Source: Minicystis rosea (GTDB lineage: Bacteria; Myxococcota_A; Polyangia; Polyangiales; Polyangiaceae). Taken from it: 64,000 bases of DNA. Below are positions 1 through 61,827 of this stretch, in pieces. Below the pieces are notes generated by a model that saw nothing but the letters and a program-made list of their open reading frames with translations, was not told the origin of the DNA and made no database searches. Numbering within the stretch: position 1 is the stretch's first letter; the number at the start of each line of letters is the position of its first letter. The stretch spans positions 4,567,573 to 4,631,572 of the forward strand of contig CP016211.1 in assembly GCA_001931535.1 (NCBI GenBank), in the 5' to 3' direction. A program made the translations under genes and the position numbers.

Positions 1-665
1 TGATCGACAGAGCCGCTAGCGCCAACGAGGAGGTTCGGCGGCGCACGGCCCTCCAACACCGGACCGTACGGCGGATGAGCCGGCTCGTCCGCAATGTGCT
101 GGACTCGAGCATGCTTGAGGCGGGCGAGCTGTCGCTCGATCTTGCCGTCGAATCGGTAGAGCCGCTCTTCGAGGAGGCCGTCGAGGAGCACGAGCCCGAA
201 GCACGGGCGAAGGCGGTGCGGCTCGAGTATGAACTCGCCTGTAACCTGCCCTTGGTACGCTGCGATCACGACCGGATCATCCAAGTCCTCTCGAATCTGC
301 TGGGCAACGCGCTACGGTTCACGCCGTCCGGCGGCCGCGTCTGGCTCACCGCCGACCTGGTGGATGGCGCCGTGCGGCTTTGCGTGCGCGACAGCGGCGC
401 CGGCATCTCGCCCGAGCTGCTCCCGCTCATCTTCGAGCGCTATTCGCGGGAGCGCCGTGATCGCGGTGGTCGGACCGGCCTCGGGCTTTCAATCGCGAAG
501 GCGATAGTCGAGCGGCATGGCGGGACGATCCAAGTGGAGAGCGAGGAAGGAGTGGGCAGCACGTTCTCGTTCACGCTTCCCATCACCGCCCCGCGTCCAA
601 CTGAGCTCCGCCCGCCGTCGTCGGAGGCCCACGCCGCGCCACTCGACACGAGCGTGAGATCCTGA
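1..665 (+). CDS. Sensor histidine kinase, C-terminal HATPase_c part (5' end lies outside the window)
   Basis: ORF 75..665 translation contains '[13 protein letters not shown]', '[23 protein letters not shown]' and '[35 protein letters not shown]', i.e. the N, G1 and G2 boxes of a histidine kinase. The reading frame is open back to position 1. Confidence 0.85.
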
Positions 666-9615: not shown

Positions 9616-9741
9616 TCATCTGCACTTCGGCTTGGCCGCTCGACACGAGCTTACGAAAGGGTCACTCGCGTCCCGCTCACTTAAACGGCCGTCGCGTGTT
9701 GCCTCAACAAGCGACGCCATTGGGCAGGGGGGCTGTGTCAT
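9616..9741 (-). pseudogene. 5' remnant of an anti-sigma factor gene (first ~23 codons identical to anti-sigma 21822..22949, then a divergent tail and stop)
   Basis: 'MTQPPCPMASLVEATRDGRLSER' is identical to the N-terminus of the intact anti-sigma factor. It keeps the ATGA overlap with the sigma gene. Confidence 0.6.
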
Positions 9742-10343
9742 GTGCTTTTCTTCTTGGCGAGAGCGCGCCTCACCTCGGTGCGCGCATAATGTAGCCGGGT
9801 CCAAACCGTCCCCACCGGGATGTCGAGCGCGGCTGCAACCTCCTCACCGGAGAGCCCCTCGCGCTCAATCATCAGGAGAACGGCGCGCTTTTCCTCCGAA
9901 AGGCGCAGGACAGCCCGCGTGACCATCTCGATGTCTTGCGCGTCGGACGCCTCGTCCTCCGGGGACCGCGTCACGACGCGGGTCAACGTCTCTCCAAACG
10001 AGGCGATGATCCGCAGAAAACGGGCGTGTTTGCGTAGCCGATCGCGCGCGATCCGCGCAGCAATCCCGATCAGGAATGGACGCGCGCACGGCCGCCCATC
10101 GTACGTGGCACCGGCCCGCGGCAAGGCGAGGAAGGTCTCTTGAACGATGTCGTCGGCGTCGGCCGCACGCATGGTGAAGCGCAGCACGGAGCGGCGCACA
10201 TCGTCGTGATACCGATCGTAGAGCGCACCGAGCGCCGCGAGGTTGCCAGCGACAACTTTGGTGATGAGCTCGGCGTCGTCCTCCGCGCGATCCAAGCGCG
10301 TCATCACGGGGGCTTCTCCGCGAAGCTCGGCTCTGGATTTCAT
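9738..10343 (-). CDS. ECF (sigma-70 family) RNA polymerase sigma factor, copy 1 (orphan; its anti-sigma partner is truncated)
   Basis: '…FLALPRAGATYDGRPCARPFLIGIAARIARDRLRK…' (region 2) and 'LSEEKRAVLLMIEREGLSGEEVAAALDIPVGTVWTRLHYART' (region 4 helix-turn-helix). About 93% amino-acid identity to 22946..23551. Confidence 0.85.
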   Translation of the reverse strand: MKSRAELRGEAPVMTRLDRAEDDAELITKVVAGNLAALGALYDRYHDDVRRSVLRFTMRAADADDIVQETFLALPRAGATYDGRPCARPFLIGIAARIARDRLRKHARFLRIIASFGETLTRVVTRSPEDEASDAQDIEMVTRAVLRLSEEKRAVLLMIEREGLSGEEVAAALDIPVGTVWTRLHYARTEVRRALAKKKST

Positions 10344-21821: not shown

Positions 21822-22949
21822 TCAGGGCCGACTGGGCTCGGCCAGGATCGCCTCCGCCTCCGCGCGGCGATAGCCCGTCGGATACAGCGCCAGGTAGCGG
21901 CGCGCCTCCGCGCGGGCGGCGGCCATACGGCCGGCGCGTTGCAGCGAGACCATGGCCAGAAATGCAGCGTCTTCGGCTCGCTCGTCACTCGGATATGCCT
22001 CGCGGAAGGCCGAGAGCTGCCGGGCGGCGGCATCGTAGTCCCCTCGGTCGGCGAGCCGGATACCTTCGCGCAGCGTATCCGCTGGATCCCGACGCGCGCT
22101 CTGCTCGTCCGGCCCCGGCTTGGCACCGGGGTGGTCGGACGAAGTCGCAGCGGATGTCGACCTGGCGAACACGGTAGATTCAGAAGGACCTTTCGGATTG
22201 GGTGTTGGCCTGGCAGGCACAGTCGCTCCTACCTCCGAGGGGCAGGACCAACGCTCTCCGGCGGCCACCAACCATGTCGTGCCGTGAAATCTCACCTCGA
22301 CCTTGCCCTCGGTTACGCGCACCGCGCGTAGGTGAGACGATCGCGCCTCGACGTGAAAGCGGGTACCACGCACCTCGACCTCAGCGTCAGCCGTGCGCAC
22401 GATGAAGCGCTCGGCGCCATGGAGCGGCCGAACTGAGAGCGCAATCACACCATCGTGCAAGGCCACGATCTCCGTGCCATCCGCCTTGGTGCGCATGAAC
22501 ACTGCCTTTCCGTCGGGAACGACCGTCGTTTCCGTGCGCATATGCAGTTCGGCAGGTGTCCCTTGCATATCGATCGGGGGCGCGATGGACCGCTGGATCT
22601 TCGGCAAGTGGGCGAGGATGGCGGGCCGTTCGGGCTCGTGATGATGTGCGATCCACCGAATAGCGGGCACGATGAGGAGCAGGAGTGCCACGTGTCGTCC
22701 CATGTTCGGCACAGGGCGCCGTGGTCGCGCAGCTTCGCGGAGTAGGGCGAGGCGTCCACGCTGCTTCTCCAAACGCGTGAGGGGTTGCACGCGCAGGATT
22801 CCACCCAGGTGGTCGAGCTCGGCCTTGAGTGCGGCGCATGCAGGACACACGAGAAGGTGGCGCGCGACCGAGGTCGCTTCCCGCTCGCTTAGACGGCCGT
22901 CGCGTGTTGCCTCAACAAGCGACGCCATTGGGCAGGGGGGCTGTGTCAT
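21822..22949 (-). CDS. Anti-sigma factor (zinc-finger N-terminus, FecR-like domain, TPR-like C-terminus)
   Basis: 'LLVCPACAALKAE' zinc-finger anti-sigma N-terminal domain. FecR-like beta region 'AEVEVRGTRFHVEA'. TPR-like C-terminus. ATGA overlap with the upstream ECF sigma gene. Confidence 0.75.
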   Translation of the reverse strand: MTQPPCPMASLVEATRDGRLSEREATSVARHLLVCPACAALKAELDHLGGILRVQPLTRLEKQRGRLALLREAARPRRPVPNMGRHVALLLLIVPAIRWIAHHHEPERPAILAHLPKIQRSIAPPIDMQGTPAELHMRTETTVVPDGKAVFMRTKADGTEIVALHDGVIALSVRPLHGAERFIVRTADAEVEVRGTRFHVEARSSHLRAVRVTEGKVEVRFHGTTWLVAAGERWSCPSEVGATVPARPTPNPKGPSESTVFARSTSAATSSDHPGAKPGPDEQSARRDPADTLREGIRLADRGDYDAAARQLSAFREAYPSDERAEDAAFLAMVSLQRAGRMAAARAEARRYLALYPTGYRRAEAEAILAEPSRP

Positions 22950-23551
22950 GTGCTCCTCTTCTTCACGAGAGCGCGCCTCACCTCGGTGCGCGCATAGTGT
23001 AGCCGGGTCCAGACCGTCCCCACCGGGATGTCGAGCTCGGCTGCGACCTCCTCACCGGAGAGCCCCTCGCGCTCAATCAACAGGAGAACGGCGCGCTTCT
23101 CCTCCGAAAGGCGCAGGACAGCCCGTGTGACCATCTCGATGTCTTGCGCGTCGGACGCCTCGTCCTCGGGGGTCCGCATCACGACGCGGGTCAACGTCTC
23201 TCCAAACGAGGCGATGATCCGCAGAAAACGGGCGTGTTTGCGCAGCCGATCGCGCGCGATCCGCGCAGCGATCCCGATCAGGAATGGACGCGCGCACGGC
23301 CGCCCGTCGTACGTGGCGCCGGCCCGCGGCAAGGCGAGGAAGGTCTCCTGAACGATGTCGTCGGCGTCGGCCGCACGCACGGTGGAACGCAGCACGAAGC
23401 GACGCACGTCGTCGTGATAGCGATCGTAGAGCACACCGAGCGCCGCGAGGTTGCCTGCAACGACTTTGGTGATGAGCTCGACGTCATCCTCCGCGCGGTC
23501 CGGACGCGTCATCACGGGGTCTTCTACGGGCATCTCGGCTCTGGATTTCAT
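22946..23551 (-). CDS. ECF sigma factor, copy 2 (with intact anti-sigma partner)
   Basis: Near-identical paralog of 9738..10343. Sigma-70 regions 2 and 4 are present. Confidence 0.85.
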   Translation of the reverse strand: MKSRAEMPVEDPVMTRPDRAEDDVELITKVVAGNLAALGVLYDRYHDDVRRFVLRSTVRAADADDIVQETFLALPRAGATYDGRPCARPFLIGIAARIARDRLRKHARFLRIIASFGETLTRVVMRTPEDEASDAQDIEMVTRAVLRLSEEKRAVLLLIEREGLSGEEVAAELDIPVGTVWTRLHYARTEVRRALVKKRST

Positions 23552-27649: not shown

Positions 27650-27720
27650 CACCGGCAGCGGCATCTCGCCCGAGCTGCTCCCGCACATCTTCGGCCGCTA
27701 CTCGCGCGAGCGCTCCGGAC
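27650..27720 (+). pseudogene. ~70-nt fragment copied from a histidine-kinase G-box (paralog of 400..470)
   Basis: 'gcggcatctcgcccgagctgctcccgcacatcttcggccgctactcgcgcgagcgc' is ~85% identical to window positions 405-462. It encodes '[17 protein letters not shown]' with no kinase context. Confidence 0.5.
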
Positions 27721-27976
27721 GCCGTGCTCCCGGGGCGCTCCGCGGCGGGCGCTGTGCGAGCATCCGTGGGCCTGCTCCCTCGGATCGAGGTCCTCGGCCT
27801 CACGCTCTCGGACGAGCCCGTCGCGGTGGCAGAGCTCGGCCCCCATCTGATGAACCTCCAGATCGCGGGTGTGCTCGGCGTTCAGCGGCTCTTCCGCCGT
27901 GATGTGGTGATCCTCGATTATGTATGCCGCCGCGCGCGTCGAACGATCGCGGCAGAGCCGGGCCGAAGGTTAGCCG

Positions 27977-29147: not shown

Positions 29148-29426
29148 CGGTGCCGAGGGTACTCCGGCGTCGACAGAAGGCCATTCCTGGGCCGCATCAC
29201 GAGAGCACGGCGGCGGCGATCTTCGCACGTCATGTCGCTGTTCGCGGCCGCCCTGCGGATCGCCTTGTCCACGCGGATTGAGAGGCGCGCGCGCTGTCCC
29301 GTGAACTTCTTCGCGAGGGCGCTTGGGACGCGCCGTACGCGGCGGGGTGGCGGGACGCTCGTCTTACGCGCCGTTAAGCCGTTGCACCGCATGCCGCATT
29401 GGCGCGGCGCATCCCGAGGGAGGTAC

Positions 29427-31533
29427 ATCCCGGTAGGGACGGCCCTTTCGGGCCGCCCCCCGGACAGAGCCCGGCGAGCGGATCTCCCGCACCGGGCTCC
29501 CACCTTCGGTCTACGGACATGCAAAGCGCTGACTGGGCCAGGGGTGGACGATGCGAGCCGGCGGAAACGGAAAGCAGACATCGAAACGCTTGGTCTTCTC
29601 GACGGTCCATTGGGCTCGTTGACTTCGCCTTTGAAGCTGGCGATGCCAGGCGAGCTCGACTTGCCGACGGAACATCACCAGCGCCCGTGAATTCGTGGAA
29701 ACTCCATAGTAGTTGCAGTGCCCACGAATCACAGCGCAGAGCCACCGATGTTGTAGCGCCGGTGGCTCGTGCCTTCGTCGTCTTATTTCCACACGTAGCT
29801 CTGACAGCTTCGCCACGCGCTTCTTCCGGGAGGTACGACGTTGCAGTTGGAACCTGCCACCGCGCGTTTGGCCGGCGATGTGCGTGAACCCAAGGAAGTC
29901 AAACGTCTCGGGCCGCGCACGGCCGTCGTGTCTGCACTCCTTGCGGGCGTAGCGCCCGAACCGCAGCACCCGAGTCTTCTCTGGGTGCAGCTCCAAGCCG
30001 AACTTCACGATGCGCTCGGCCATCGCCGACCGCATCGCGCGTGCGTCCTGTTCGTACTGAAAGCCCAGCACCACGTCGTCGGCATAGCGCACAATGTAGA
30101 CTTCCCCTCGCGCATGCCGCCGCCGCCATTGCTGGACCCACAGGTCGAGCGCGTAGTGCAGGTAGATGTTCGACAGCAAAGGGCTGATGCCACCCCCTTG
30201 TGGCGCTCCCTCCTGCACCGCGCGCACCTCACCGTCCTCCATGACGCCAGCGTGCAGCCACTTCATCAAGAGCCACACCATGCGTCGGTCTGCGATCGTG
30301 TGCTCGATGAACTTCTGCATCCATCCGTGCTCAATCGTGTCGTAGAACGCACGGATATCCGCGTCGAGCACCCAGCTCACCTTCTTGCCGATGGCCACCG
30401 CGAGAGCATCCAGAGCCCGATGCTGCGACCGGCCAGGCCGGAAGCCATACGAGAACCCCAGAAACGCCTGCTCGTAAATGGGCTCCAGGATCATCCGCGC
30501 TGCTTGTTGAACAATCTTGTCCTCCAGCGCAGGAATGCCGAGCGGACGCGTGCGACCATCTCCTTTGGGGACGTGTACACGCCGGACCGGCTGCGGATGA
30601 TAGTTGCCGCGGTGAACGCGGTCCTGAAGGTCACGCATTCGGGCGTCCAAATTCTCGCCGTATACGCGCCATGTTATCCCATCTACACCAGGAGCCGCTT
30701 CCTTGTTGAGACGGCTGTACGCCTCCTTCAGAAGTGGCACCTTGATGTGGCTCAGCAGGTTGGTGAACCGTTCCCCTTTCCTTTGCTTCACTCGCTGTCC
30801 GACCCGCTCCAGGGCCGTGAGCGCGCCTGCCCGGTTCTGAGCCCGGAGCGCGTTTCGTGGAGCAGGTTTCCCGTTGGCCGCGCGCCTTCCCTCCATCGAC
30901 TCCGCAGGCGTTACCCTCGCGTTCGCCGACTTCTTGCAGGTCGGTACTACGCGCGCGTCTGACTCCTCGGAGGACTGCTGCGGATTGCGGCTTCTGCCTT
31001 CCCGCCCGTGCCTGAGGACCGCTATCGGCCCACCGGCCCCTCCGAGGTCTCCCGGTTCCCGTGCATGAGACGTGTGGGGGCTTGCCGAACTCTTGGACCC
31101 CGGAGGGAGCAGTGAATCCAGGTCCACATTATTCGGAAACACGCTATGGCCATCCGCATGGTCTAACTGCGTTGGCTCCCTCGAACCATGTTGTTTCGGA
31201 GCTCGATCACCCGGCCCGCCCACATGCCCTCCTACGCTTCGCCCCGCAGGTCACCCTGCGTTGCGCAAAGATAGGCTTCCCAGGGGTGGACTCTTCCTGG
31301 GGCAGGACTTGCTCGACACGACATGTATCTTGCTCACCTGCTTTCTCATGCCGGTTTTCACCGGCGCACCAGACCGAACATTTGGGGAAATGTTCGTTCT
31401 TCCTCGTGAATCATCGGTCGGGTGCCACCAGCTTAACACGAGTCTGATCTCGGCGAGCTCCCCAACCTTGTCGGCGGCGATGCACGGACCGGGAGGCGCG
31501 GACTTCGTAGACACCGCCGACGGGCGACGGCGG
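29427..31533 (-). mobile_element. Group II intron (apparently full length, ~2.1 kb) with intron-encoded RT/maturase
   Basis: Minus-strand 5' end GTGCG at 31533. IEP ORF lies in domain IV. Domain V 'GAGCCCGGTGCGGGAGATCCGCTCGCCGGGCTC' and domain VI hairpin 'CCGGGGGGCGGCCCGAAAGGGCCGTCCCTACCGGGAT' have a bulged A 8 nt from the 3' end and end in AT at 29427. Confidence 0.75.
29511..30896 (-). CDS. Group II intron reverse transcriptase/maturase (intron-encoded protein)
   Basis: RT domains 0-7 ('GVDGITWRVYG', 'RRVHVPKGDGRTRPLGIPALEDKIVQ', 'FRPGRSQHRAL', 'YADDVVLG') and maturase X 'RGHCNYYGV'. No HNH endonuclease domain. Confidence 0.85.
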   Translation of the reverse strand: MEGRRAANGKPAPRNALRAQNRAGALTALERVGQRVKQRKGERFTNLLSHIKVPLLKEAYSRLNKEAAPGVDGITWRVYGENLDARMRDLQDRVHRGNYHPQPVRRVHVPKGDGRTRPLGIPALEDKIVQQAARMILEPIYEQAFLGFSYGFRPGRSQHRALDALAVAIGKKVSWVLDADIRAFYDTIEHGWMQKFIEHTIADRRMVWLLMKWLHAGVMEDGEVRAVQEGAPQGGGISPLLSNIYLHYALDLWVQQWRRRHARGEVYIVRYADDVVLGFQYEQDARAMRSAMAERIVKFGLELHPEKTRVLRFGRYARKECRHDGRARPETFDFLGFTHIAGQTRGGRFQLQRRTSRKKRVAKLSELRVEIRRRRHEPPALQHRWLCAVIRGHCNYYGVSTNSRALVMFRRQVELAWHRQLQRRSQRAQWTVEKTKRFDVCFPFPPARIVHPWPSQRFACP

Positions 31534-31687
31534 CGGGGCGCACGCCCCAGTCGCGGCGGACCCGACGAGTAGCGCGGCGGTCGCGGTGAGCGACTCCTCA
31601 TCTCGCGCTCATCGCCTATAACAGACCAGCCGTCGCCTCACCCGACTCCCTTTGGGGTTAGCGGGCTTCCCCTCGCGCTGCCCTCGT

Positions 31688-32768: not shown

Positions 32769-33958
32769 GTTTGCTCCTTTGGATACGTCGGCACCACGGA
32801 CGACGTCGTATCGGCCCCTACAACATGCGCGCCAATCGAGGATACGGGCCACGGCGTTCGAGAGCCCGGGTTTCGGGCGCCTCGATGGCCTCCGCGAGGC
32901 ACCCGGAGACGGAGGTGACTCGGCACGTGCCCGGCACGTGCCTGTTTGGGTGCCCGCCGTCCAATGTCCTTACACACGGAAATCGGCGACGGCGACGTCA
33001 ACGGCAATCGGTCGTTGCCGTTGACGTTGACGTGAGCGTTGCGGCCGCCGTCGCCGTCGCCGAACGTGGCGTCCGGGACCAATTCCGAAGGTTGGAGCTG
33101 TGTGTCAGGATCGATCGACGCTCCTCGACGACGGCCGAGTGCTCGTCTCGGGGGGACAGGCGCCGCCCACGACGTCGGGGAGCGCGATCTTGGCGAGCGC
33201 CGAGTTGTTCGGACTTTGAGTCCGGCGAGATGGCGCGACTGGCCGTTGTCGCCCACCCTTACTCGCGCGGCGGCGCCGACGCCTGACCGTGCCCTTCGGT
33301 GAACAAGCAGATCGGCGAGCGCGGGGGCCTTTACCAGCTCGTCAGCGATGGTCGCGGAGGGCCGGGATACGCACTGCGTTGGCGCGGCGCGTCCCGAGGG
33401 GAGTGCCAGACCGAACAAGGTTGTCACTGTTCGATCTTCCTCGCGATCCATCGTCCAAGCCATTTCTGCCACAACCTGCTCGCCGTGGGTCGCGCCAACG
33501 ACGTGGCGCGTGCGGCGCGTCAGGCGCCCCCAACACCGCGCGCTCTCGCATCGCTTGGGGATTACGCGACGGAGCCCAGCGCACGCCCGCTGGGTGGTAT
33601 CCGATACCGCGGGTATCCGATCCCCGAAGCCGACCAGGCACCGAGCGGGTCTCCGAGGCGCACGTCGGTTCGGTCGAAGATGACGTCGTTCAGGGCGTTG
33701 ACGGCGCCCTCGATGGCTCATCTCCTCGCGCGTGAGGAGACGATGATGACGAAGACGATCGAGGAAATTCGGGCAGCGTTGGTGCGGAGCAACGTCGGAT
33801 TTGGCCGACCTTATTCGGAGGGCCCGTCCGACTTCCCCTGACCCCACCCGAGGCGCGATCCAGGATACTCGCCCACTCCCGGCACCCGGTCGTCTCCCCA
33901 GGTTCCGTTCGTCGTCCCGGATGCCTGCGCCGGACACGGCGCGCGAGTGAGGTCGAGC

Positions 33959-36695: not shown

Positions 36696-37640
36696 ACGAG
36701 GTCTCCTTGGGCTGGCCCTCATCGATGGCGCGCGACAAGCCGTCGAAACGATGGTGCGGAGGATGGCCGACGCCAACGTGGTAGGGTCGAGATAAGCGTA
36801 CCGCAGTATAATGTCCCACGTTCGCCGTGAAGGGCTACAAGTGCATAAAATCACGTTGAATTCCGACGTGCTGCGGGTATCGCAGGTCGGGCGTAGCTCG
36901 GGCAGCCTCTCACGTCCTCAAAACCTCGCAATCCCCTCCGCCAGCGGCCTGAACCGGTACACCCGATAGGGCGCCCCATTCCTCGCCACGCCGTCCGCCG
37001 CCATCCTCCGCGTCGGTGACGGTCGGATCGTAGAGGCTCGGCACGAAGCGCGCCGGATCGGACATGACCGTTCGGTAAAGGGCGTCATTCGTCAGCACGC
37101 TCCTTTGCCCCGGATGCGCCCGTCATCAGGGGATGTTCATGAGCGCCTCTGGTCTTCGACCCGAGGTCCCACGGACACCGAACAAGCGCAGGAGCCAAGT
37201 TCGAAGAACTGGTACAGTTGGGGCTTGCCCTCGGGCCAAGCGCCGCGGCCCACCCATCCGCACGCGTCTCTCCGAACGCGCGGGTGTACTTGGACGTTCG
37301 CGGTCTGGACTTCTGGCTCGGCGATTGACAACCCATCCGCCTCGCCCGTCCCTGAATGTTCATCCCTCTGTGGGTGTTCATGACCTCCATCGAGATCGTC
37401 GCCTACGCCGAACACATCACCCGGATTTCACGCTCGAACCCACTTGCTCATGACTTCCATCCCGAGGGAGGTGCTGAACACGCCAAAGAGCTCTCCCCCA
37501 TGTCAAGGGCGACGGAGCCGGCTCGCGTAGCGGGCGAACCCTCAACGCGGCTGAGCACTCTGCATGCTCATCCGGCGACGGGCTGACGGTCGACGCGAGG
37601 GTCAAAAATCCGCGGATCGTGGCGGCCGTCTACAGTTGAC

Positions 37641-37722
37641 CGAAGGTGGGAGCCCGGTGCGGGAAATCCGCCCGCCGGGTTCTGTCCGGGGGGCGGCCCG
37701 AAAGAGCCGTCCCTACCGGGAT
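37641..37722 (+). mobile_element. Orphan group II intron 3' remnant (domains V-VI only)
   Basis: 'GAGCCCGGTGCGGGAAATCCGCCCGCCGGGTTCTGTCCGGGGGGCGGCCCGAAAGAGCCGTCCCTACCGGGAT' is ~90% identical to DV-DVI of the full intron. No IEP or DI-IV lies upstream. Confidence 0.6.
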
Positions 37723-38185
37723 GCACTCCCCTCGGAAGGGAAGCGCGAACTGGATCCGCGGGATGAACTGTAGACGCTGGGCCACATGGGCGTTCGGGCC
37801 TCGCCCTCAGGGGCGTCAGCGGTGCTCGCCGCGCCGCTACGGCGGCACCCCGAAGCTCCGGGAGGCCGCACGGCACCCGAGGGCGGCCGCGGGCGCGTTC
37901 ATGTTCGGCGTCCTGCACACGGGAAACCCGTTCTACGCCGCGCTCATCTACGGGACGCTGGCCGCGTTCGTGGGCATGCCGGTGTTCGCCGGCGGCACCC
38001 TCGCCGTGCGGCGGCTGTTCCTGCGCGAAGCCCAGCAACACGGCCTCGCCAAGTCGACGTCGACGCTCATCCTCACCCGCGCCGAGCGCCGCGCGCGCCT
38101 CTTGCCGTTCTGGAAGCGCGAGGACGAGCGCCTCGAGCTCCTCCTGCAAGCGGTCCGCGAGCCCGATCGCGCCGACTGCCCCGGG

Positions 38186-54775: not shown

Positions 54776-55948
54776 TCACGCCGCGAGGACGACCTTCTCG
54801 CAACCGTCGAGCTTGTTGACGAACAGGTCGTATCCGCGGGGCGCGTCCTCGAGCTTCATGCGATGGGTGATGACGAAGCTCGGATCGATCTCGCCCTTCT
54901 GGATGCGCTCGAGCAGCGGGCGCATGTAACGCTGCACGTGGCACTGGCCGCTCTTGATGGTGAGCGAGCGGTTCATCACGGCGCCCATGGGGAACTTGTC
55001 GATGAAACCGCCGTACACGCCGATGACGCTGACGATGCCGCCGTTGCGGCACGCCTGGATCGCCTCGCGCAGCGCGATCGGGCGATCGGTCTCGAGCCGC
55101 ATGGCCTGCTTGGCGCGGTCGTAGGCGAACATCGGCCCGTGTCCGTGCGCCTCCATGCCCACGGCGTCGATGCACGCGTCGGGGCCGCGCCCGGCGGTCA
55201 TCTCGGCGAGCGCCTCGAGCACGTCCACCTCCTCGTAGTTGATCGTCGCCGACGCGCCTGCCTTGTCCCGCGCCATCTGGAGCCTATACGGGAAGCGATC
55301 GATGGCGATCACGCGCTCGGCGCCGAGCAGGCGCGCGCTGGCGACGGCGAGCAGACCGACCGGGCCCGCGCCCCACACGGCCACGACGTCGCCGGGCTCG
55401 ATCTCGGCCATCTCCGCGCCCATGTAGGCCGTCGGGAAGATGTCGGAGAGGAAGAGCACCTGTTCGTCAGTGAGCTCGGCCGGGACCTTGATCGGCCCGA
55501 CGTCGGCGAACGGCACGCGCGCGTACTCGGCCTGGCCGCCCGCATAACCGCCCAGCAGGTGCGAATAGCCGAAGATGCCCGCCGGCGAGTGGCCCCACAG
55601 CTTCTCGGCCATCCAGGCGTTGGGGTTCGAGTTCTCGCAGACCGAATACAGCTCCTCCTTGCACATCGCGCAGGTGCCGCAGGCGATGGGGAAGGGGACG
55701 ACCACGCGATCGCCGACCTTCAGGTTCTTCACCCCGGGCCCGACCTCGACGACCTCGCCCATGAACTCGTGGCCGAGGATGTCGCCCTTCTCCATGGTGG
55801 GGATGAAGCCGTTGAAGAGGTGCAGATCCGAGCCGCAGATGGCCGTCGACGTGATCTTGATGATGGCGTCGTGCGAATTCAGGATCTGCGGATCCGGCAC
55901 GTCCTCGACCCGAACCTTCCTCTTGTCGATCCAGCTGTTGGCTTTCAT
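54776..55948 (-). CDS. Zn-dependent alcohol dehydrogenase, glutathione-independent formaldehyde dehydrogenase-like
   Basis: 'CGSDLH', '[12 protein letters not shown]', structural-zinc Cys cluster '[15 protein letters not shown]', 'VWGAGPVG' Rossmann motif. Confidence 0.85.
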
Positions 55949-58316: not shown

Positions 58317-58961
58317 ATGGCATCGAAGGAAGGGGCGCGCGGCGGCGGCGCGAAGGCCTGCGCCGGTATCGGACAAGGGGACCAAGAGACGCCCGCGCGC
58401 GGCGCTCCCACGCCGGCGGGCCACGACGTGCCGAACGTGGCCTTCGCCGCGCTCGGACCGAACGCCACGCGCGTCACGAAGAGCGTCACCATCGGCCGGC
58501 CCCGCGCCGAGCTGTTCGGCATCCTCCGCCGCCCGGGCCTTGCGGCGCGGCTCGTGAAGGACGCCGAGCGCGTGCAGCTGTTGCCGGGGGTGGCCGGGAG
58601 CGCCCACTGGACGGTGCGTGGACGGCTGGGGCTCCGGCTCACGGGGGTGGCCGAAACCATCGCGGAGATCCCCGACCAGCTGATCGCCTGGCGCTCGCCA
58701 CCGGGCGCCTCCGTCCCCAACGCGGGGTCGATCAGCCTCGCGGACGCGCCGGGTGATCGCGGCACCGAGGTGAAGGTGGTCCTGGCGTATCGCCTGCGGG
58801 GCGGCGCCCTCGGTCGCCTGCTGGGCAAGCTTGTCTGGCTCGCGCCCGCGGAGCTCGTGCGCGGCGCGCTGCGCCGACTGCAGCAGCTCGTCGAGGCGGG
58901 CGAGATCGCGACGATCGAAGGTCAACCGTCCGGCCGGCGCTCCCGGCGGTTGGGAGGGTGA
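58317..58961 (+). CDS. SRPBCC-domain protein (paralog of 55945..57051)
   Basis: 'VTKSVTIGRPRAELFGILRRPGLAARL…QLIAWRSPPGASVPNAGSISLADAPGDRGTEVKVVLAY'. Confidence 0.6.
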   Translation: MASKEGARGGGAKACAGIGQGDQETPARGAPTPAGHDVPNVAFAALGPNATRVTKSVTIGRPRAELFGILRRPGLAARLVKDAERVQLLPGVAGSAHWTVRGRLGLRLTGVAETIAEIPDQLIAWRSPPGASVPNAGSISLADAPGDRGTEVKVVLAYRLRGGALGRLLGKLVWLAPAELVRGALRRLQQLVEAGEIATIEGQPSGRRSRRLGG

Positions 58962-58965
58962 AGCG

Positions 58966-60135
58966 ATGCGAGCAATCTGCTGGAACGGCGTCAACGACGT
59001 GCGCGCCGAGCGCGTGCCCGAGCCGAAGATCCTGAACCCGCGCGACGCCATCGTCCGCGTCACCATGTCGTCCGTGTGCGGGTCGGACCTCCACCTGTTG
59101 CACGGCTACATCCCCACGATGAAGGCGGGCGACATCATCGGCCACGAGTTCATCGGTGAGATCGTCGAGACGGGCCCGGGCGTGAAGAACCTGGCGAGGG
59201 GTGATCGCGTCGTCGTCTGCTCCATCCTCGGCTGCGGCGCCTGCTACTACTGCAAGCACCAGCTCTTCTCGCTCTGCGACAACTCGAACCCGAACCACGT
59301 CGTCACCGACAAGCTCTTCGGCGACACCACCGGCGGTATCTTCGGCTACTCGCACGCCTTCGGCGGCTACGCGGGCAGCCACGCCGAGTACGTCCGCGTG
59401 CCGCTCGCCGACGTCGGCGCCTTCCGGGTGCCGGCGGGCATCCCGGACGAGCGCCTCGTCTTCGCCTCGGACGCGCTCGCGACCGGGTACATGGGCGCGG
59501 ACATCGCGGGCATCCAGCGGGGCGACGTGGTCGCGGTGTGGGGGGCCGGCGGCGTCGGGCAGATGGCCATTCGATCCGCGTACCTGCTCGGCGCCGAGCG
59601 CGTCATCGCCATCGATCAGATCCCCGAGCGGCTCGCCGTGGCGCGCGAGAAGGGGCACGCCGAGACCTTGAACTTCCGCGAGGTCGACGTGCTCGAAGCC
59701 CTCCGCGAGCTGACCGGCGGCCGCGGGCCGGACCGCTGCATCGACGCGGTGGGCATGGAGGCCGAGCGCGGAGGCCTGCTCGGCGTCTACGACCGGGTGA
59801 AGCAGGCGCTGCGCCTCGAGACGGATCGGCCCCACGTGCTGCGCCAGGCGATCATGGCCTGCCGCAAGGGCGGCACCCTCTCGATCCTGGGCGTCTACGC
59901 CGGCCTCGTCGACAAGCTCCCCATGGGCGCGGTGATGAACAAGGCGCTCGTGATCCGCACGGGCCAGCAGCACGGGCAGCGCTACATCCCGCGGTTGATC
60001 GAGCACATCGTCCGCGGCGAGATCGATCCCTCGGACCTCGCCACCCACCGCTTGCCCATCGAGGATGCGCAACGCGGGTACGACCTGTTCGCGAGCCGCA
60101 AGGAAGGCTGCCTGCGCGTCGTCTTCACCCCGTGA
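58966..60135 (+). CDS. Zn-dependent alcohol dehydrogenase, formaldehyde-dehydrogenase-like (paralog, ~60% identical to 54776..55948)
   Basis: 'CGSDLHLLHGYIPTMKAGDIIGHEFIGEIVETG', 'CGACYYCKHQLFSLC', 'VWGAGGVG'. Confidence 0.85.
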   Translation: MRAICWNGVNDVRAERVPEPKILNPRDAIVRVTMSSVCGSDLHLLHGYIPTMKAGDIIGHEFIGEIVETGPGVKNLARGDRVVVCSILGCGACYYCKHQLFSLCDNSNPNHVVTDKLFGDTTGGIFGYSHAFGGYAGSHAEYVRVPLADVGAFRVPAGIPDERLVFASDALATGYMGADIAGIQRGDVVAVWGAGGVGQMAIRSAYLLGAERVIAIDQIPERLAVAREKGHAETLNFREVDVLEALRELTGGRGPDRCIDAVGMEAERGGLLGVYDRVKQALRLETDRPHVLRQAIMACRKGGTLSILGVYAGLVDKLPMGAVMNKALVIRTGQQHGQRYIPRLIEHIVRGEIDPSDLATHRLPIEDAQRGYDLFASRKEGCLRVVFTP

Positions 60136-60215: not shown

Positions 60216-60360
60216 ACCATCGGCTTCGTCCCGGCGGGGACGGTGACCTTCGTGCAGCGGTTCAGCGCGACGTTGCAGAGCTTCGTGCATCTGCACGTCG
60301 TCGCCATCGACGGTGTCTTCACCCGCGAGACGAGGGGCGGGCCCGCCGTCTTCCACGAGG
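60216..60360 (+). mobile_element. Fragment of an IS91-family (Y2) transposase
   Basis: 'IGFVPAGTVTFVQRFSATLQSFVHLHVVAIDGVFTRE…PAVFHEG' matches the conserved IS91 transposase core ('VTFxQRFGSALNLNxHFHxLVLDGVY'). No complete ORF. Confidence 0.45.
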
Positions 60361-60506
60361 GCCGCGCCCTACGCCGAGCGCGACGCCCGCCTGCTCGGTC
60401 GGCCCGTGGTGCCCGTGGTACACGAGTGGTTCGCGCACACGGCCCCGGGCCCGTGACCACCGTCGCCGCGCGCGCACGACGGTGACGGGCGCGCGTGATC
60501 GCGCCT

Positions 60507-61827
<1,321 letters not shown>

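Follow-up and report, generated by a model that had tools for sequence, protein, structure and literature searches.

A full-length group II intron, very probably of class E, in an intergenic hairpin-forming repeat of Minicystis rosea

What kind of element lies upstream of a CDP-alcohol phosphatidyltransferase gene in the genome of Minicystis rosea, where does it begin and end, and is it still capable of movement? The question arises from a stretch of 64,000 nucleotides (nt) of contig CP016211.1 (positions 4,567,573 to 4,631,572), referred to below as the window and numbered from its first letter. An earlier, sequence-only reading of the window suggested that positions 31533 to 29427 harbor a complete, possibly mobile group II intron. 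The analysis presented here indicates with high confidence that the stretch 31369..29427 of the minus strand (-), 1,943 nt long, holds a full-length group II intron retroelement of bacterial class E (IIE, IIB-like), which encodes an intact reverse transcriptase (RT)/maturase devoid of the endonuclease (En) domain and is inserted in an intergenic hairpin-forming repeat. The core of the initial observation is real and far beyond chance, since Rfam matches to domain I and to domains V and VI (DV/DVI) flank an uninterrupted RT/maturase open reading frame (ORF). Biologically, the element is a routine retroelement, an ordinary and well-preserved member of the known class E family.

All six domains are present in the intron RNA, the fourth one holding the ORF for a 461-aa protein. 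The domain I core (31088..31311(-)) was recognized by the Rfam family group-II-D1D4-6 with 112.6 bits (E=4e-31, gathering score 49). Domain II (30965..31047(-)) has the basal stem CCUCGGAGG/CCUCCGAGG, in which compensatory changes occur over 83 relatives (e.g., UA 41/CG 38, CG 42/UA 39, GC 49/AU 21); here and below, relatives are numbered as loci L001 onward. Domain III (30918..30955(-)) is a putative one, discerned by reading the sequence CGCG-UAGUAC-CGAC...GUCG-GCGAA-CGCG together with its conserved AGUAC and GAA blocks. Domain V (29467..29499(-)) comprises 33 nt with an AGC triad, a 2-nt bulge, and a 5-nt loop, which is GAGAU in the window intron vs. GAAAU or UAAUU in the relatives. Domain VI (29430..29463(-)) bears a bulged UA, whose A (29434) is the branch point and is located 7 nt before the 3′ end ..GAU. 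Both domains are covered by the Rfam model Intron_gpII at 29501-29427(-) (39.4 bits, E=1.3e-5). All DV and DVI pairs are intact in the window copy, and compensatory changes were found at 12 of the 28 pairs among 21 relatives, the covariation of DVI being located in its upper stem; a compensatory G-C to C-G swap in DV and DVI marks a Sorangium/Polyangiaceae sub-clade.

Without the ORF, the ribozyme consists of 473 nt + 84 nt. In its 5′ 473 nt, the window copy retains 109 of the 111 positions that are at least 90% conserved across 84 distinct relatives. The two deviating positions (31173 G>A and 31152 A>U) are opposed across the internal loop under the EBS1 stem (EBS, exon-binding site; see below); these changes could represent a G.A to A-U swap, and L001 shares the first of them. 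A minimum free energy fold of the 5′ 490 nt (z = -2.8) was set aside, since it did not reproduce the canonical layout of domain I.

The ORF residing in domain IV (29511..30896(-)) encodes 461 aa followed by a stop codon, with the YADD motif at 30086-30075. The intron-encoded protein (IEP) matched the profile TIGR04416 (group_II_RT_mat) over residues 56-424 with 353.1 bits (curated cut-off 300), and Pfam RVT_1 matched as well; no HNH/En domain match was found in the protein, which ends 37 aa past the TIGR04416 match. There is no stop or frameshift across the 461 codons. In a 15-sequence IEP alignment, all invariant columns are retained, including PQGG.SP and YADD, and the start MEGR.. is common to 15 relatives. 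The identity of the IEP to those of the relatives is 50–79% overall: 50–54% for most family members found and 79% for the best one. Look-ups of the exact protein sequence retrieved no other copy.

On these points, the sequence-only reading holds. Its claim of a complete group II intron is borne out by the D1D4-6 match, the DV/DVI match, and the intact ORF, all on the minus strand, and the check by covariance models that it proposed gave a clear score for domain I and one for Intron_gpII just under the gathering score of 40. The RT/maturase of 461 codons without En that it described is indeed there, as are the good domain V and the bulged A of domain VI (29434 is the 8th base from the 3′ end); the proposed 3′ end ...AU at 29427 is where the last two positions of the Intron_gpII model fall.

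The 5′ end at 31369 is backed by three independent lines, i.e., the limits of similarity to the relatives, an unoccupied paralogous copy of the target, and the fit between the exon-binding sites and the intron-binding sites (IBS) of the exons. Across ~30 related introns, the 5′ edge of similarity is GUGCGCC at 31369 and the 3′ edge is ...CCGGGAU at 29427. In the alignment with the closest relatives, there is no similarity upstream; it sets in abruptly at G(U/AU)GCGCCGG and stops at CCCUACCGGGA(U/C). Likewise, the nhmmer alignments of the first 330 nt to ~30 further loci begin at model position 1–2. The 5′ splice-site motif GUGCG (31365..31369(-)) is followed by a family-conserved hairpin, CCGG-UGAAAA-CCGG, at 31364-31351; this end is kept as (G)UGCGCCGG..CCGGCA in ~57 relatives, and the hairpin pairs in 54–57 of 57. 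In the relatives, the part before the ORF measures 445–475 nt, with GUGYG placed 445–469 nt ahead of the ORF (473 nt in the window copy), and the total intron length amounts to 1,904–1,969 nt (median 1,915).

The recognition of the exons involves three pairings, found for the flanking exons only if the ends of the intron are placed at 31369 and 29427. The 5′-exon recognition sequence (31370..31381(-)) is composed of IBS2 AUGUU (31381-31377), a C, and IBS1 GGUCUG (31375-31370). EBS1 UAGACC (31160..31165(-)), in a terminal loop of domain I, forms 6 bp with IBS1; EBS2 AACAU (31188..31192(-)) forms 5 bp with IBS2. The candidate EBS3, a C at intron position 275 (31095(-)), forms a single pair with the first base of the 3′ exon, G (29426, IBS3). 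The predicted ligated-exon junction (the junction is denoted by ^) reads ...UGUUCGGUCUG^GUACCUCC, likewise ...AAAUGUUCGGUCUG^GUACCUCCCUCGG.

Covariation across the family backs EBS1 and EBS3. An anchored complementary run of at least 6 between EBS1 and IBS1 was present in 47 of the 67 unique intron/exon pairs vs. 5.5% of 4,300 mismatched controls, and the pairs tested comprise 31 different IBS1 hexamers; the stem below the EBS1 loop covaries in the relatives as well. EBS3 is the sole variable column of domain I complementary to position +1 of the 3′ exon (17 of 19 unique relatives). At the position of EBS2, the closest relatives have the pairs CACCCU:GGGGUG (L001), CGGUUC:GAACCG (L002), and UGCAC:GUGCA (copy C); in a free-register test of EBS2, real pairs and controls could not be told apart.

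The insertion site is a ~80-nt palindromic hairpin-forming repeat, which is also present, unoccupied, at 33.4 kb, i.e., 4 kb from the intron. This paralogous target (33376..33454(-), ...CCTTGTTCGGTCTG^GCACTCCCCTCGGGACGCGCCGCGCCAACGC..., with the junction between 33407 and 33406) reads uninterrupted across the junction as TGTTCGGTCTG^GCAC..., the target motif being TGTTCGGTCTG^GYACYYCCCTCGG; the intron itself is flanked by ...AAATGTTCGGTCTG and GTACCTCCCTCGGGATGCGCCGCGCCAATGC. The joined exons match the empty site with 88% identity over 42 nt (blastn, E=2e-8) and are alignable from about -48 to +34. In the 5′ exon, folding predicts a hairpin of 13 bp (31371..31400(-), AGAACGAACAUUU-CCCC-AAAUGUUCGGUCU), which a scan for terminator-like structures detected as well and beyond which an outer CGAGG/CCUCG pairing would span the junction; the empty copy is predicted to fold in the same way. 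The 3′ arm of this hairpin bears IBS2-C-IBS1, and the arm with the next base is the stretch read by EBS2, EBS1, and EBS3. The 3′-exon part of the repeated target (29393..29426(-), GUACCUCCCUCGGGAUGCGCCGCGCCAAUGC...), starting with the IBS3 G, matches the empty site and two further copies of the motif. The 3′-exon motif GYACYYCCCTCGGRA occurs in the window four times vs. 0.12 expected: at the intron, at the empty site, at 37460-37474(-) in a degenerate form, and at 37723-37737(+) after an orphan DV/DVI remnant. The four copies of the target within 8 kb comprise one with the full intron, one with a 3′ remnant, one empty, and one degenerate.

Other readings of the target were considered and discarded. 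Its coding origin was suggested by two short ORFs that align with each other (MIHEEERT..FGL^VPPSG.. and MDREEDRT..FGL^ALPSG..), yet it was rejected, because the substitutions are spread evenly over the codon positions and the ORF at the intron site stops after 35 codons. A sigma-54-like reading of TGGCAC-N5, made by eye, was rejected too, as GG-N10-GC was not found. Comparison of the target with Rfam at E<=5 returned nothing beyond chance microRNA-like matches; metagenomes scanned for the empty-site motif returned 0 matches, and the motif is absent from the 82 loci of related introns.

Two further pieces of introns were found in the window. The orphan remnant (37635-37737(+)) contains 88 nt of DV/DVI, is 92% identical to 29514-29414, and matches Intron_gpII with 48.5 bits at 37648-37722. 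Its start coincides with the expected place of the IEP stop codon, and the same 3′-exon motif, GCACTCCCCTCGGAA, comes after it; the remnant looks like a 5′-truncated insertion into another copy of the repeat, e.g., as a result of abortive reverse transcription. The degenerate fourth target copy (37460-37474(-), GTGTTCA^GCACCTCCCTCGGGA) lacks GGTCTG and lies 248 nt apart from the remnant's flank, in the inverted orientation. The second piece, at ~60510-61354(-), is a 5′ fragment of a different class E intron (D1D4-6 180.8 bits at 61319-61097; GUGCG at ~61354), whose own EBS1 UAUCUGU pairs with the 5′ exon GCAGAUA. Its RT ORF (61095..60319) shares 52% identity with the main IEP along 133 aa, the similarity being lost after ..EDKIVQRAA, and no DV/DVI was found downstream of this fragment. 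With one 5′-truncated and one 3′-truncated copy, the window illustrates the decay of class E introns.

How the full-length intron would move can be outlined from knowledge of the family. After transcription, the IEP would bind its own intron RNA and aid its splicing. The excised ribonucleoprotein would then find DNA by base pairing (AUGUU-C-GGUCUG^G) and reverse-splice into it. Since the IEP lacks an endonuclease, a nascent strand of the replication fork would prime the synthesis of complementary DNA. The anatomy and the pairings of the intron are observed features; the pathway is modelled, by analogy, on work with class D (RmInt1) and class C introns (PMC5894124, PMC4424553). RmInt1 of Sinorhizobium meliloti (class D, IIB3) is the best-studied working model for the probable movement of the window intron: it possesses an En-less RT-maturase, is guided by EBS1/EBS2/EBS3 into a repeated element, and is thought to prime from replication-fork strands (PMC5894124). 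At the same time, RmInt1 is of another class: in the class D consensus, which the window intron matches at 55%, the 5′ end is GUGUG, DV has 34 nt and a GAGA tetraloop, and the branch A is followed by 6 nt.

Judging by the integrity of its sequence, present mobility of the intron is plausible, and nothing in the sequence seems to argue for its inactivity. Still, several points weigh against the overall picture. The DV/DVI match (39.4 bits) is marginally below the Rfam gathering score, one near-invariant residue in the maturase region of the IEP is altered (YGVP to YGVS), and the near-cognate site 4 kb away is still empty. In a position-restricted test, the EBS2-IBS2 pairing is weakly above controls family-wide, although it is clear in the close clade. 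The assignment to class E is derived from RNA consensus motifs and exclusion, not from an IEP tree, and the case for splicing and mobility is built on the nucleotide sequence. The tested IIE ribozymes spliced in vitro by hydrolysis alone, forming no lariat, and did not require EBS2 there (Nagy et al. 2013, PMC3753933).

The alternative that survives best is that the intron represents a structurally complete but immobile relic in which splicing or retrohoming has been lost, a possibility to be taken seriously, if not the favored one. Bacterial introns often decay, and both other intron copies in the window are fragments; the unoccupied target, the DV score, and the P to S replacement in the maturase region are compatible with a relic as well. 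In addition, three of the six IIE introns tested in vitro were inactive (PMC3753933). On the other hand, the relic reading is opposed by 461 codons free of stops and frameshifts, by the retention of every invariant IEP residue and of all but two of the conserved ribozyme positions (with the two changes facing each other), and by the full set of DV/DVI pairs and of the three EBS-IBS pairings. An intact and plausibly mobile intron is the reading retained here. To our knowledge, self-splicing in vitro has been demonstrated for class E introns, but movement never has. The intact copy, its cognate exons, and the natural empty site 4 kb off constitute a ready donor/recipient pair for a first class E mobility assay.

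The class of the intron was assessed using the published consensus of the 5′ boundary, DV, and DVI/3′ boundary of each class (Abebe, Candales and Zimmerly 2013, Fig. S1). The best match was obtained for class E (52/59, 88%), with two of the mismatches making one compensatory pair, followed by F (40/56, 71%), CL1 (67%), C (64%), and A, B, D, CL2, and ML (at most 63%). The spacing typical of class E, 7 nt after the branch A, is present along with the DVI start UGUCCGGGGGG (UGUCCGGGG). The 5-nt DV loop replacing the GNRA tetraloop is peculiar to IIE and IIF, and a small IIB-like ribozyme of 450–700 nt without the ORF, as in the window intron, is characteristic of class E (Nagy et al. 2013, PMC3753933). 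Judged via the consensus and not against a labelled class E sequence, the window intron resembles the class E introns Cl.be.I2, Ch.ph.I2-1, and Sy.wo.I1-1 (Toro et al. 2002; Nagy et al. 2013, PMC3753933) in the 5′ GUGCGCC...GGUGnAA, the 33-nt DV with a 5-nt loop, the DVI start UGU(G/C)nGGGGG, and the branch A 7 nt from the ...GAy 3′ end. The likeness extends to the IIB-like EBS1/EBS2/EBS3, a ribozyme part of ~470 nt ahead of the ORF, an En-less RT-X protein, and the intergenic siting. A sequence search of PDB was uninformative as to the class, IIC, IIA, and IIB IEPs all scoring 134–153 bits.

Assignment to class F (or to one of the groups g1–g4) instead of class E is quite improbable. It would be in line with the IIB-like architecture, the small size, the 5-nt DV loop common to E and F, and the second-best consensus match, and the Sorangium/Myxococcus introns Sg.ce.I1 and Mx.xa.I1 belong to g2. 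However, Toro's group g2 carries FADD, whereas the window IEP has YADD. In the class F consensus, DVI starts with GAyGAGGG and 6 nt follow the branch A; the window intron has UGUCCGGGGGG and 7 nt, as in E. The reference intron Ni.ha.I1 (class F/g3, Nitrobacter hamburgensis plasmid 1) is likewise IIB-like, En-less, and ~1.9 kb long with a 5-nt DV loop, but the Rfam model it matches is D1D4-4, not D1D4-6, and the identity of its IEP to that of the window intron is 34% vs. 50–79% in the D1D4-6 family. The relatives scanned with Rfam (L001, L004, L082) all match D1D4-6.

Even less credible is membership in class C (IIC), with insertion behind a terminator-like stem-loop and recognition of the DNA structure plus an IBS1 of 3–4 nt. 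Like class C introns, which reside at terminator or attC stem-loops, the window intron is small, encodes an IEP without En, and lies beside a DNA hairpin in an intergenic "safe" site: the 13-bp hairpin stops 1 nt before the insertion site, and the top PDB matches of the IEP are, marginally, IIC RTs (153 bits vs. 149 for LtrA). Nevertheless, class C was excluded because of the 6-bp EBS1, the presence of EBS2, and the form of DV: IIC introns lack EBS2 and a part of EBS1 (PMC3753933), and the class C consensus has a DV of 30 nt with a 4-nt loop vs. 33 nt and a 5-nt loop here. The consensus match is also well below that for E (64% vs. 88%), the hairpin lacks a U-tract on the strand of the intron, and the IBS sequences form part of its 3′ arm instead of coming after it.

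The weakest alternative, a longer intron from 31533 (or from the GUGCG at 31543) to 29427 with ~640 nt of domains I–III, is already refuted and merits practically no credence: a GTGCG is indeed present at 31543-31539(-), but it is a chance motif, because GTGCG occurs 283 times in the 64-kb window, and, in addition, no relative is similar upstream of 31369, the 33.4-kb empty site matches 31370-31417 as exon, the relatives have shorter 5′ parts and total lengths (see above), and EBS1/EBS2 pair with 31381-31370, not upstream of 31543. The sequence-only reading erred here: the GUGCG it placed at 31533 is absent from that position (the nearest one is at 31543-31539), the true one being at 31369-31365, and its boundary was 164 nt too far out, with neither family similarity nor EBS/IBS pairing. 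A plausible EBS/IBS pairing with the flanking exons, whose absence it had named among the refuting outcomes, is lacking at 31533 and is found at 31369 for EBS1, EBS2, and EBS3. Accordingly, the part upstream of the ORF shrinks from ~640 nt to 473 nt, and the length of the intron from 2,107 nt to 1,943 nt. For the annotation, 31370-31687 (318 nt) is host sequence outside the intron, and the element should be entered as a class E intron of 1,943 nt that encodes an RT/maturase of 461 aa.

The three closest genomic relatives of the intron are L002 and L003 of Sorangium sp. So ce134 and L001 of a deltaproteobacterial metagenome-assembled genome (MAG), with IEPs 70–71% identical to that of the window intron. 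Together with the metagenome contig Ga0315910_10047588 (L083), they share its domain layout and DV/DVI (IEP identity 70–79%), and L001 also shares the IBS1 GGUCUG. L001–L003 differ in that an additional A follows the initial G (GAUGCG), the DVI loop is longer by an insertion of ~21 nt, and the targets are different; L002 and L003 sit inside a palindrome of GCCAAGAC repeats.

The insertion sites of the relatives were also surveyed. Among 71 unique sites occupied by related class E introns, 25 show AGGAG/GGAGG on the antisense strand of the junction, usually with an ATG 10–15 nt on; a long or open-ended ORF (up to 483 aa) follows at 13 of these 25. Such loci include L004, L005, L009, L010, L019, L020, L050, L095, L097, L117, L119, L125, and L142. 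At these sites, the introns lie antisense, directly upstream of the ribosome-binding sites of unrelated genes, and EBS1 equals a Shine–Dalgarno sequence; no description of such antisense siting was found in the literature searched. A multicopy class E intron was encountered in one acidobacterial MAG (L031, L036, L039–L041, L044, L053, and L059), each copy residing at the 3′ end of a hairpin resembling a repetitive extragenic palindrome (REP), CAGACCTC-N7-GAGGTCTG^, with the same IBS1 GGUCUG as in the window intron. Considering the palindromic repeat of the window, the REP-like hairpin, and the antisense Shine–Dalgarno sites in about a third of the relatives, it can be tentatively speculated, with rather low confidence, that the class E lineage colonizes short, generic, structure-forming intergenic motifs and not one long unique homing site. 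Three target strategies are recognized for bacterial group II introns, namely homing sites, terminators, and attC; if true, this one would be beyond them.

As to the surroundings of the intron, its intergenic location is supported, and the sequence-only reading was right in placing it outside coding sequences, since no homologous ORF spans the joined exons. The CDP-alcohol phosphatidyltransferase gene is real (Pfam, 36 bits vs. cut-off 22). The proposed placement of the intron in the 5′ leader of this gene is unproven: the insertion is co-oriented with the gene and lies 279 nt upstream of its ATG (29147), but the scan located no promoter, and, more importantly, the site of insertion is the palindromic repeat that also occurs empty at 33.4 kb. 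The histidine-kinase remnant reported at 31912-31688 turned out to resemble the last third of HATPase_c weakly and in part (E=0.0026, short of the cut-off).

The neighborhood appears to be rearranged. Two histidine-kinase pieces, 27651-27722(+) and 31795-31694(-), correspond to consecutive parts of HATPase_c (profile positions 45-68 and 75-108), and both align to an intact paralogue at ~300-560(+). This arrangement suggests that one kinase gene may have been split by a ~4.07-kb inversion (~27.74-31.80 kb), which would have taken the intron and the phosphatidyltransferase gene along; its putative breakpoints showed no repeats. The GC skew over the window is weak, too weak to infer the direction of replication. 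Elsewhere in the window, inverted zinc-type alcohol-dehydrogenase-like paralogues (54776-55948(-) and 58831-60135(+), 72–79% identity) flank ~3 kb beside the truncated intron fragment, and a 300-nt direct repeat (9666-9965 and 22874-23173) occurs with 95% identity between its two copies, located 13.2 kb apart.

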